A stretch of 64,000 nucleotides of DNA from Escherichia coli O127:H6 str. E2348/69 (GTDB taxonomy: Bacteria > Pseudomonadota > Gammaproteobacteria > Enterobacterales > Enterobacteriaceae). The notes beneath the pieces were generated by a model. That model was given only the letters and a program-made list of their open reading frames with translations. It was not told the origin of the DNA and did not search any database. A program made the translations under genes and the position numbers. The stretch lies in assembly GCF_000026545.1 (NCBI RefSeq), contig NC_011601.1; one strand, given 5' to 3'. Shown here in pieces: positions 8,096 to 8,123 of the stretch (its first letter is position 1; every line of letters starts with the position of its first letter).

Positions 8096-8115
8096 TTTAA
8101 GGGGCGAAAGCCCCT

Positions 8116-8123
8116 CTGATTAT
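8116..8123. repeat. target-site duplication, left copy (CTGATTAT)
   Basis: Identical 8-mer immediately outside both IS ends (second copy 9674-9681); a 9-bp reading CTGATTATC is possible if the first C of the left IR is counted. Confidence 0.55.

Follow-up and report, generated by a model that had tools for sequence, protein, structure and literature searches.

We analysed a stretch of 64,000 nucleotides from the chromosome of Escherichia coli O127:H6 strain E2348/69, an enteropathogenic E. coli (EPEC), which we refer to as the window, and in particular the spacer between lamB and malM, where an insertion sequence (IS), ISEc13, has come to lie. The stop codon of lamB at 7950 is followed by a cluster of repetitive extragenic palindromic (REP) units, which together form a bacterial interspersed mosaic element (BIME), then by AAAAACAGCTTTAA, a small hairpin, GGGGCGAAAGCCCC, and the IS. 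The exact position of the IS is very probably explained by motif-directed insertion by its Tn5-like transposase. The features of the locus on which this interpretation draws are as follows, in window positions.

6610 to 7950, forward strand: lamB (maltoporin), the upstream gene, of the malK-lamB-malM operon; an open reading frame (ORF), annotated as lamB in E2348/69 and in STEC299.
7963 to 8087, no strand assigned: the BIME, with three REP units at 7963-7994, about 7999-8036 and 8051-8087, from motif and Rfam matches.
8101 to 8114, forward strand: the small hairpin GGGGC-GAAA-GCCCC, native to the lamB-malM spacer and present in the empty site.
8108 to 8115, forward strand: the strong target half-site AAGCCCCT, with its core CCCCT at 8111-8115, made up of the 3' arm of the hairpin and T8115; half-site score 10.9 bits.
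8116 to 8123, no strand assigned: left copy of the target-site duplication, CTGATTAT, repeated at the right end of the IS and single in the empty site.
8124 to 9673, reverse strand: an intact ISEc13 of 1550 bp (IS4 family, IS50 subgroup), with 100% identity to copies that bear this annotation in E2348/69.
8124 to 8142, forward strand: inside-end-type terminal repeat CTGTCTCTTGATCAGATCT, from end mapping.
8135 to 9508, reverse strand: transposase gene (457 amino acids, WP_000244358.1), a homologue of the Tn5 transposase (Tnp), from the ORF and a structure-homology match.
9655 to 9673, reverse strand: outside-end-type terminal repeat CTGTCTCTTATACACAAAT, from end mapping.
9674 to 9681, no strand assigned: right copy of the target-site duplication, CTGATTAT, a repeat of the left copy.
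9682 to 9689, forward strand: the weak target half-site CGGGTTTA (consensus AGGGG...), half-site score 1.08 bits.
9740 to 10675, forward strand: malM, from the ORF (ATG at 9740) and the comparison with STEC299; the IS now lies between lamB and malM.

A preliminary description of this DNA had placed the IS directly after a small GC hairpin that follows three REP units. Our results confirmed this arrangement, "directly" being a gap of 9 nt that consists of T8115 and the 8-bp duplication CTGATTAT; the last REP unit ends 36 bp before the insertion point. The REP-arm motif was matched twice in each unit, six times in total, in a motif scan, and the REP-derived Rfam family naRNA4 matched 7963-8033 with 74.8 bits against a gathering score of 59.5. 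The small hairpin has a 5-bp all-GC stem and a GAAA loop, and its folding was predicted for RNA and for single-stranded DNA alike. Together with the third REP unit (8054-8116) it also gave a sub-threshold naRNA4 match of 43 bits against 59.5, as if it were standing in for a fourth palindromic unit. The other REP or BIME clusters of the window, at 3771-3860, 12348-12380 and 54719-54880, are not associated with an IS. To the right of the second CTGATTAT, the spacer continues with CGGGTTTAGCG... and then malM. A promoter and terminator scan had marked 8100-8117 as terminator-like; we rejected this candidate, since its T-rich tail is partly supplied by the IS and the tail in the empty site is not T-rich.

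The first letters of the IS, from 8124 on, are CTGTCTCTTGATCAGATCT, and its last letters, up to 9673, are ...AAGAGACAG (in a longer reading, ...GTGTATAAGAGACAG). In RefSeq, the 100% identical copies carry the product name "IS4-like element ISEc13 family transposase", and their protein cluster is named "transposase of ISEc13"; our naming follows these RefSeq copies and this cluster rather than the ISfinder reference entry. The element had initially been taken for IS50. Its transposase matched Tn5 Tnp structures with E = 6e-84; the DDE and YREK residues were aligned, with EDTT, CDREADI and Y..R...E......K paired with their Tn5 counterparts, and Pfam PF14706 and PF01609 are recorded for the protein. 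Both hallmarks of the IS4 family and its IS50 subgroup, a DDE triad and a Y(2)R(3)E(6)K signature, are therefore present in it. However, it is only a diverged homologue of Tn5 Tnp, far from identical and with several indels, and the outside end differs from that of IS50, so the element is ISEc13 and not IS50 itself. The IS50 subgroup has been defined by ends of the form CW------Y---CA-A--W-, a length of 1350-1550 bp and direct repeats of 8-9 bp (Table 1, PMC2266710). The ends CTGTCTCTTATACACAAAT and CTGTCTCTTGATCAGATCT match this consensus at positions 1, 2, 9, 13, 14, 16 and 19, and the length of 1550 bp and the duplication, 8 bp here and 8 or 9 bp elsewhere, fall within the definition. We take the 19-bp inside end CTGTCTCTTGATCAGATCT to be identical to that of IS50, and the natural outside end CTGTCTCTTATACACAAAT differs at 2 of 19 positions from the outside end of IS50 and at 2 of 19 from the synthetic hyperactive Tn5 "mosaic end" CTGTCTCTTATACACATCT.

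In STEC299, the empty site is an uninterrupted spacer, ...GGGGCGAAAGCCCCTCTGATTATCGGGTTTAGC..., with a single CTGATTAT and nothing deleted. A DNA search of 5426 E. coli genomes found the occupied lamB/IS junction in three, all of them assemblies of E2348/69, and many genomes matched the lamB side perfectly with the match ending at the IS boundary. The single CTGATTAT in STEC299 and the restriction of the junction to E2348/69 assemblies show that this is a recent, strain-specific insertion of ISEc13 with an 8-bp duplication. A search with the IS alone placed ISEc13 at 30 positions on the E2348/69 chromosome (median 1 and maximum 32 across the 5426 genomes), and full-length copies are present in 873 complete E. 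coli genomes. The insertion puts the IS between malM and the malK-lamB promoter. Transcription from lamB would enter the IS at its inside end, antisense to the transposase gene, and malM is therefore probably uncoupled from the operon promoter.

Several ISEc13 copies aligned 13-18 nt past the IS boundary into the flank of the window, which provided a lead to the choice of target. In strain B19374, yqiK and an ibs toxin gene flank the IS, with the arrangement ...GGAAAGCCCCT/CCCGAAGA/IS/CCCGAAGA/AGGGGCC... (slashes mark the borders of the duplication, here and below), and GAAAGCCCCT recurs in the flank, just as far from the IS as it is in the window. Copies were gathered by exact-protein look-ups, from individual hits of an IS-only search and with junction-extracting scripts, and shared loci were collapsed. 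Hits of the lamB/IS junction search that resembled the flank were biased toward the window and were kept out of the statistics, except for L002, the first lead (L numbers denote individual loci). Many look-ups returned the same inherited sites, namely ybaY-MGMT, pgtA and a plasmid site.

The survey yielded 24 independent ISEc13 sites with both flanks, and 6 further sites seen from one or both sides. The pattern was uniform: a C-rich arm, the duplication, and a G-rich arm. Of the 24 duplications, 16 were 8 bp long, seven were 9 bp and one was 7 bp. Examples are the following targets.

yqiK-ibsE: GCCCCT/TCTTCGGG/AGGGGC
A further site: ATCCCC/CCGCTCGG/GGGGATTTTTTT
A further site: AAAAAACCCTCT/GTAGTAAC/AGAGGGTTTT
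Downstream of trpA: AACCCCC/AGCCTAGCT/GGGGGTTTT
tldD-aaeR: TTCCCCT/AACCCCAG/AGGGGCG

Read toward the cut, the 46 half-sites of the 23 non-window sites gave the following counts.

Position -5: C in 34 of 46.
Position -4: C in 46 of 46.
Position -3: C in 37 and T in 9 of 46.
Position -2: C in 45 of 46.
Position -1: T in 26 and C in 16 of 46.

The resulting matrix was symmetric on both arms and stood in a fixed register with the staggered cuts, and the opposite polarity, GGGG...CCCC, was found at none of the surveyed ISEc13 sites. With the simple consensus CCCCT-N8-AGGGG, which has 10 scored positions, at least 8 positions were matched at 18 of the 24 sites and at least 6 at all 24; in the window freed of the IS, which served as background, at least 8 were matched at 11 of 62,424 positions. 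When a log-odds matrix for half-sites was built from the 23 other sites and without that of the window, the real insertion came first of 124,835 position-by-spacing candidates in the IS-free window (duplication start 8116, spacing 8). The total of 11.99 bits consists of 10.9 for the left half, GAAAGCCCCT/CT, and 1.08 for the right half at 9682; the strong half is the 3' arm of the hairpin, GCCCCT (8110-8115), and the other is CGGGT at 9682-9686, beyond the IS. Out of sample, six of seven further half-sites exceeded the 99.9th percentile of the background, 7.22 bits, with scores of 7.5-9.3 bits.

The same matrix predicted other targets in the window, which are unoccupied here. The next best lies at 25629-25637 (AAACCCT/TGGCGGCTC/AGGGGC, 11.1 bits) and a further one at 63029-63036 (ATCCTCT/GGCGAGTG/AGGGCG, 9.95 bits).

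Individual sites were also used more than once. The yqiK-ibsE site was used twice independently, by insertions in two strains that duplicated TCTTCGGG and TCCTCGGG, respectively, and the paralogous ibs/sib hairpin beside mdtA is also a target. The agp-yccJ site and the site downstream of tRNA-Pro each carry 8-bp and 9-bp duplications in different strains. At single sites the IS was found in opposite orientations in other strains (L003 vs L199, L008 vs L207), as it was downstream of trpA in metagenome contigs. Relative to co-directional flanking genes, the transposase gene was in sense at about 4 sites and antisense at about 5. The half-site on the inside-end side tended to be stronger than that on the outside-end side, marginally so (Wilcoxon p = 0.053). 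The symmetric target and the lack of orientation bias fit recognition by a two-fold symmetric transposase complex; the two-fold consensus, the fixed register and the absence of orientation bias are those of symmetric-target DDE transposition of the IS10, IS231A and Tn5 type.

The 8- or 9-bp duplication was always present in unrearranged ISEc13 copies. The copies L001 (pMAR2), L009/L010 (CP148541.1) and L016/L024 (Alishewanella jeotgali) lack a duplication and have reciprocal half-sites as flanks, which indicates that recombination between IS copies has inverted or otherwise rearranged the DNA there. At two loci, ISEc13-like copies recur over many unrelated-looking strains: older, pseudogenised copies of 96-97% identity at pgtA (L053, L194-L197), and copies of about 98-100% identity with intact transposase genes at ybaY-MGMT (L006, L052, L055-57, L184, L193). 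This recurrence suggests ancient inherited insertions or strong hot spots.

The targeting behaviour is conserved in distant relatives, which come from marine bacteria and metagenomes. ISEc13 itself was absent from species-representative genomes, which contained only relatives of 39-53% identity; transposases 42-49% identical to that of ISEc13 occur in Alishewanella, Alteromonas, Pseudoalteromonas and various metagenome-assembled genomes. The elements of this clade share the outside end CTGTCTCTTATACACAAATCC, and a metagenome scan with this 21-mer gave 120 loci, with most contigs breaking inside the IS and both flanks present in 7 of 121. A profile of 89 distinct outside-end flanks, on the outside-end side only, had the following composition by distance from the IS.

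-20 to -15: A-rich.
-13 to -7: C/G-rich, with more C than G.
-6 to -4: A/T.
-3 to -1: G/C.

This profile is the 5' half of a hairpin made of an A-tract, a GC stem and a loop. Sixteen sites of relatives with both flanks lie in palindromes that reach 5-13 bp outward. Their duplications were 8 bp at 8 sites, 9 at 2, 10 at 3, 11 at 1 and 12 at 2, and a single Alishewanella element had duplications of every length from 8 to 11 bp. In most cases the cut directly follows a 4-nt G/C-rich block next to the A-tract, so the length of the duplication follows the size of the hairpin apex. This range, which goes beyond the 8-9 bp given for the IS50 subgroup (PMC2266710), suggests either two half-sites with flexible spacing or a target that is not in B form.

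Two of the relatives' loci showed peculiarities of their own. At 1603-1652 of L105, a 50-bp palindromic mini-element, in which two inverted outside ends have the subterminal hairpin in common, sits in a CCCCC...GGGGG hairpin, and is a candidate miniature inverted-repeat transposable element of the ISEc13 clade. At this locus (1594-1661) and around the IS ends of L028, the flanking 9-mers are reverse complements instead of direct repeats (AGCATAGCT/AGCTATGCT and GGCAAAGCC/GGCTTTGCC), with only the central triplet flipped. Correction of a quasi-palindrome by template switching is one possibility.

Based on these observations, we propose the following account. An intact ISEc13 moved recently into the lamB-malM spacer of E2348/69. 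Each half of its transposase complex would prefer a half-site with a C-tract, 5'-(A/T-rich)CCCCT-3', whose end coincides with the cut made by that half, and two such half-sites, inverted and 8 bp (sometimes 9 bp) apart, form the target CCCCT/N8-9/AGGGG, of which N8-9 becomes the duplication. In the window, the left half-site is the 3' arm of the hairpin with T8115 (GCCCCT) and the right one the poor match CGGGT, and the REP cluster has no part in the choice of site. C4-N10-G4 is a typical intrinsic-terminator-like stem, so the element usually lands in the apex of such hairpins between genes; if duplex DNA is read, hairpins would be targeted because many terminator stems have this form. As judged from the sequences, the transposase itself would read the half-sites on duplex DNA, although we are less certain of a reading of duplex sequence rather than structure than of motif-directed insertion as such.

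The alternative that survives best, though we consider it unlikely, is that the transposase or a host process recognises a structure, namely an extruded hairpin, a cruciform or a single-stranded terminator hairpin, and that the consensus is secondary. Most targets are palindromes whose apex is the duplication; many of them are genuine hairpins, and several resemble, by folding, intrinsic terminators with A and T tracts. Targeting of hairpins without a sequence consensus has a precedent in IS1272/TnSha1 (PMC4923244). Several observations weigh against a pure sequence reading. Positions 6-10 of the outer arms, which are not conserved in sequence, were complementary more often than the 25% expected by chance, namely in 47 of 120 cases (p = 7e-4); the arms of relatives vary (GCCA/TGGC, GGCT/AGCC, GGGA/TCCC); and the relatives' duplications of 8-12 bp track hairpin size (L013-L040, L060, L152 and others), which would be hard for a rigid complex on B-DNA. 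Because of the outer-arm complementarity and these duplications, recognition of structure is possible instead of, or besides, the reading of sequence. In addition, the window site has a single good half-site and a weak second one, the out-of-sample flank L209 scored weakly (0.49 bits), and our roughly 30 sites are a convenience sample in which the approximately 30 copies of E2348/69 are represented only in part. All insertions are natural survivors, and selection could sharpen the picture. On the other side, the arms of ISEc13 targets are almost invariably C-tracts and never have the order GGGG...CCCC. Poor palindromes were used nonetheless, with little or no complementarity, at the window site (three possible pairs), in the intragenic ygfK copy and at L003 and L004, each with at least one good C-tract half-site. 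Furthermore, the only stable hairpin of the window site (8101-8114) adjoins the duplication rather than surrounding it, and is intact outside it. These three points favour, for ISEc13, a reading of the sequence or shape of C-tract half-sites on duplex DNA. We also rejected, as a general rule, cutting at a constant distance of 4 nt from an extruded hairpin's base, given that the A/T tracts belong to the palindromes and that the arms of ISEc13 targets are 4-6 nt long.

We find it very improbable that the IS was drawn to the REP cluster, as are IS1397, ISKpn1 and IS621. The end of the third unit lies close by, and REP-targeting ISs are known in five families, including ISRm22 of the IS4 family (PMC1525189), but the insertion is outside every REP unit and REP sequences do not have C4/G4 arms. 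A REP motif lay within 150 bp at only 1 of the 24 other sites (L180), with one more at 341 bp, so the REP units are incidental. The survey of other copies that had been suggested earlier thus bore out a very strong, base-precise association with G/C-rich palindromes or hairpins and none with REP. Of the idea that REP or hairpin DNA biases insertion, what held was a real association with the C-tract half-site, which the hairpin supplies; neither the REP units nor the hairpin at 8101-8114 as a structure played such a part.

It is similarly improbable that ISEc13 inserts at random and survives only in harmless intergenic hairpins. Most of the surveyed sites do lie between genes, often convergent ones, but selection after insertion cannot produce the single-base register of the arms with the duplication or a specific C-tract. 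The intragenic ygfK copy retains a good half-site, and the insertion in the window is inside an operon. Least probable of all is that ISEc13 inserts roughly at random, as is generally thought of Tn5/IS50, and lies near a hairpin and REP units by accident: the IS-free window has 28 all-GC 5-bp hairpins, with about 1% of positions within 12 nt of one, and the Tn5 motif is itself weak (GYYYWRRRC, plus a G/C bias; PMC3292447), so that the coincidence is not extreme and bare proximity, a reasonable ground for suspicion, is not decisive alone, but chance, which the preliminary description had allowed for, is rejected by the rank of the site under a matrix from other loci, by the arms in exact register at 24 of 24 sites and by the repeated, independent use of the same sites.

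ISEc13 and its relatives also carry hairpins of their own, two of which lie in the copy in the window.

8126 to 8156, no strand assigned: 13-bp inverted repeat GTCTCTTGATCAG/CTGATCAAGAGAC, the inside end with an internal inverted copy and three GATC sites, overlapping the 3' end of the transposase gene.
9637 to 9660, reverse strand: subterminal hairpin, read on the minus strand as ACAAATCCCC-ACCC-GGGGATTTGT, next to the outside end on its inner side; a degenerate counterpart of the relatives' terminator.

All clade members have an inward-facing hairpin just inside the outside end, AAATCCC...GGGGA followed by T6-8, in the form of a canonical intrinsic terminator (first 50 nt, L013-L177), and its apical stem varies between elements with pairing kept by covariation. 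At the inside end, 8126-8138 pairs with 8144-8156 across a 5-nt loop and overlaps the last transposase codons, and every clade member has an internal TCAAGAGAC with which its terminal GTCTCTTGA pairs; this repeat could be a 3' hairpin of the mRNA, a decoy end or a means of Dam control. The IS-borne hairpins would block read-through from the host into the transposase gene and so partly replace the terminator lost on insertion: an element that habitually destroys host terminators would be exposed to read-through, and the hairpins would insulate its transposase gene. This role, suggested by the sequences, is weakened by the fact that ISEc13 keeps the terminator stem with a degenerate T-tract. More tentatively, and on balance doubtfully, the whole Tn5-like clade with the outside end CTGTCTCTTATACACAAATCC may read two independent half-sites, C-tracts or GC blocks, at the bases of terminator hairpins, with the spacing of the half-sites and not the enzyme setting the 8-12 bp duplication, and with the built-in terminator replacing the destroyed one.

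Textbooks present the Tn5/IS50 transposase as near-random, and tagmentation and Tn-seq rely on it as their workhorse; we know of no target-bound structure of the Tn5 transposase fold. Close natural relatives with a sharp, simple target rule would be a way into the question of how target DNA is read by this fold and a start for site-biased Tn5 tools, for which the nearly mosaic outside end of the ISEc13 clade is an added oddity. If the clade does read independent half-sites, it would hold site-selective relatives of the "random" Tn5 whose target-reading surface could be transplanted into tagmentation enzymes. The target rule of ISEc13 explains how the element could expand to about 30 copies in EPEC E2348/69 with genes mostly avoided, and may point to a strategy of terminator replacement. 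It also predicts recurrent hot spots, which bears on IS-based typing and on the reading of shared insertions as ancestry. We found no description of targeting by ISEc13 or the IS50 subgroup in the full-text literature, in which ISEc13 is a name in resistance and virulence surveys (ISfinder and TnPedia were outside this search, and an existing database description of the ISEc13 target may exist), and an ISEc13 entry is absent from the supplements of the IS4 review (PMC2266710).

ISEc13 shares with IS50/Tn5 a homologous transposase, a gene layout in which the inside end contains the stop codon of the transposase, and a size and duplication within the range of the subgroup (PMC2266710). In contrast, its duplication is 8 bp (sometimes 9) and not 9, the elements of its clade bear a terminator or hairpin subterminally, inward of the outside end, and its target is strong and lies in the flanking arms, CCCCT/N8-9/AGGGG, whereas Tn5 has a weak preference for GYYYWRRRC inside the 9-bp duplication, together with a G/C bias (PMC3292447).

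Like ISEc13, IS231A is an element of the IS4 family with a G/C-rich symmetric target and a variable duplication (10-12 bp). Hallet and colleagues reportedly arrived, in 1994, at the IS231A consensus GGG(N)5CCC, with bent A/T-rich DNA on either side. However, GGG...CCC lies inside the duplication of IS231A and CCCC...GGGG outside that of ISEc13, and IS231A belongs to another subgroup, with ends CAT... and hosts of the Bacillus cereus group. IS10, another IS4-family element with a symmetric target, has the consensus NGCTNAGCN. Target specificity was mentioned for IS231 elements, and none of such a kind for the IS50 subgroup, in the IS4 review (PMC2266710).

Group IIC introns home to intrinsic terminator hairpins in a safe-haven strategy. 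They are retroelements that insert after the hairpin through recognition of RNA or structure, a mechanism unrelated to that of ISEc13. IS1397 and ISKpn1 (IS3 family) and IS621 (IS110 family) resemble ISEc13 as enterobacterial ISs that choose palindromic extragenic DNA (PMC1525189). They insert inside REP units, whereas ISEc13 inserts outside them and without REP association, and we therefore rejected ISEc13 as an IS of this kind. A parallel in behaviour is found in IS1272/TnSha1 of the IS1182 family, which integrate into hairpins, many of them confirmed terminators, in a manner called novel for IS elements in 2016, and which use the same hairpins repeatedly, independently and in both orientations (PMC4923244). 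However, IS1272 makes no duplication, partly deletes the hairpin and follows no primary consensus, and its transposase belongs to an unrelated family in Gram-positive hosts. ISEc13, with its duplication, an empty site from which nothing was deleted and a strong C-tract consensus, is thus not a hairpin targeter of the IS1272 type.

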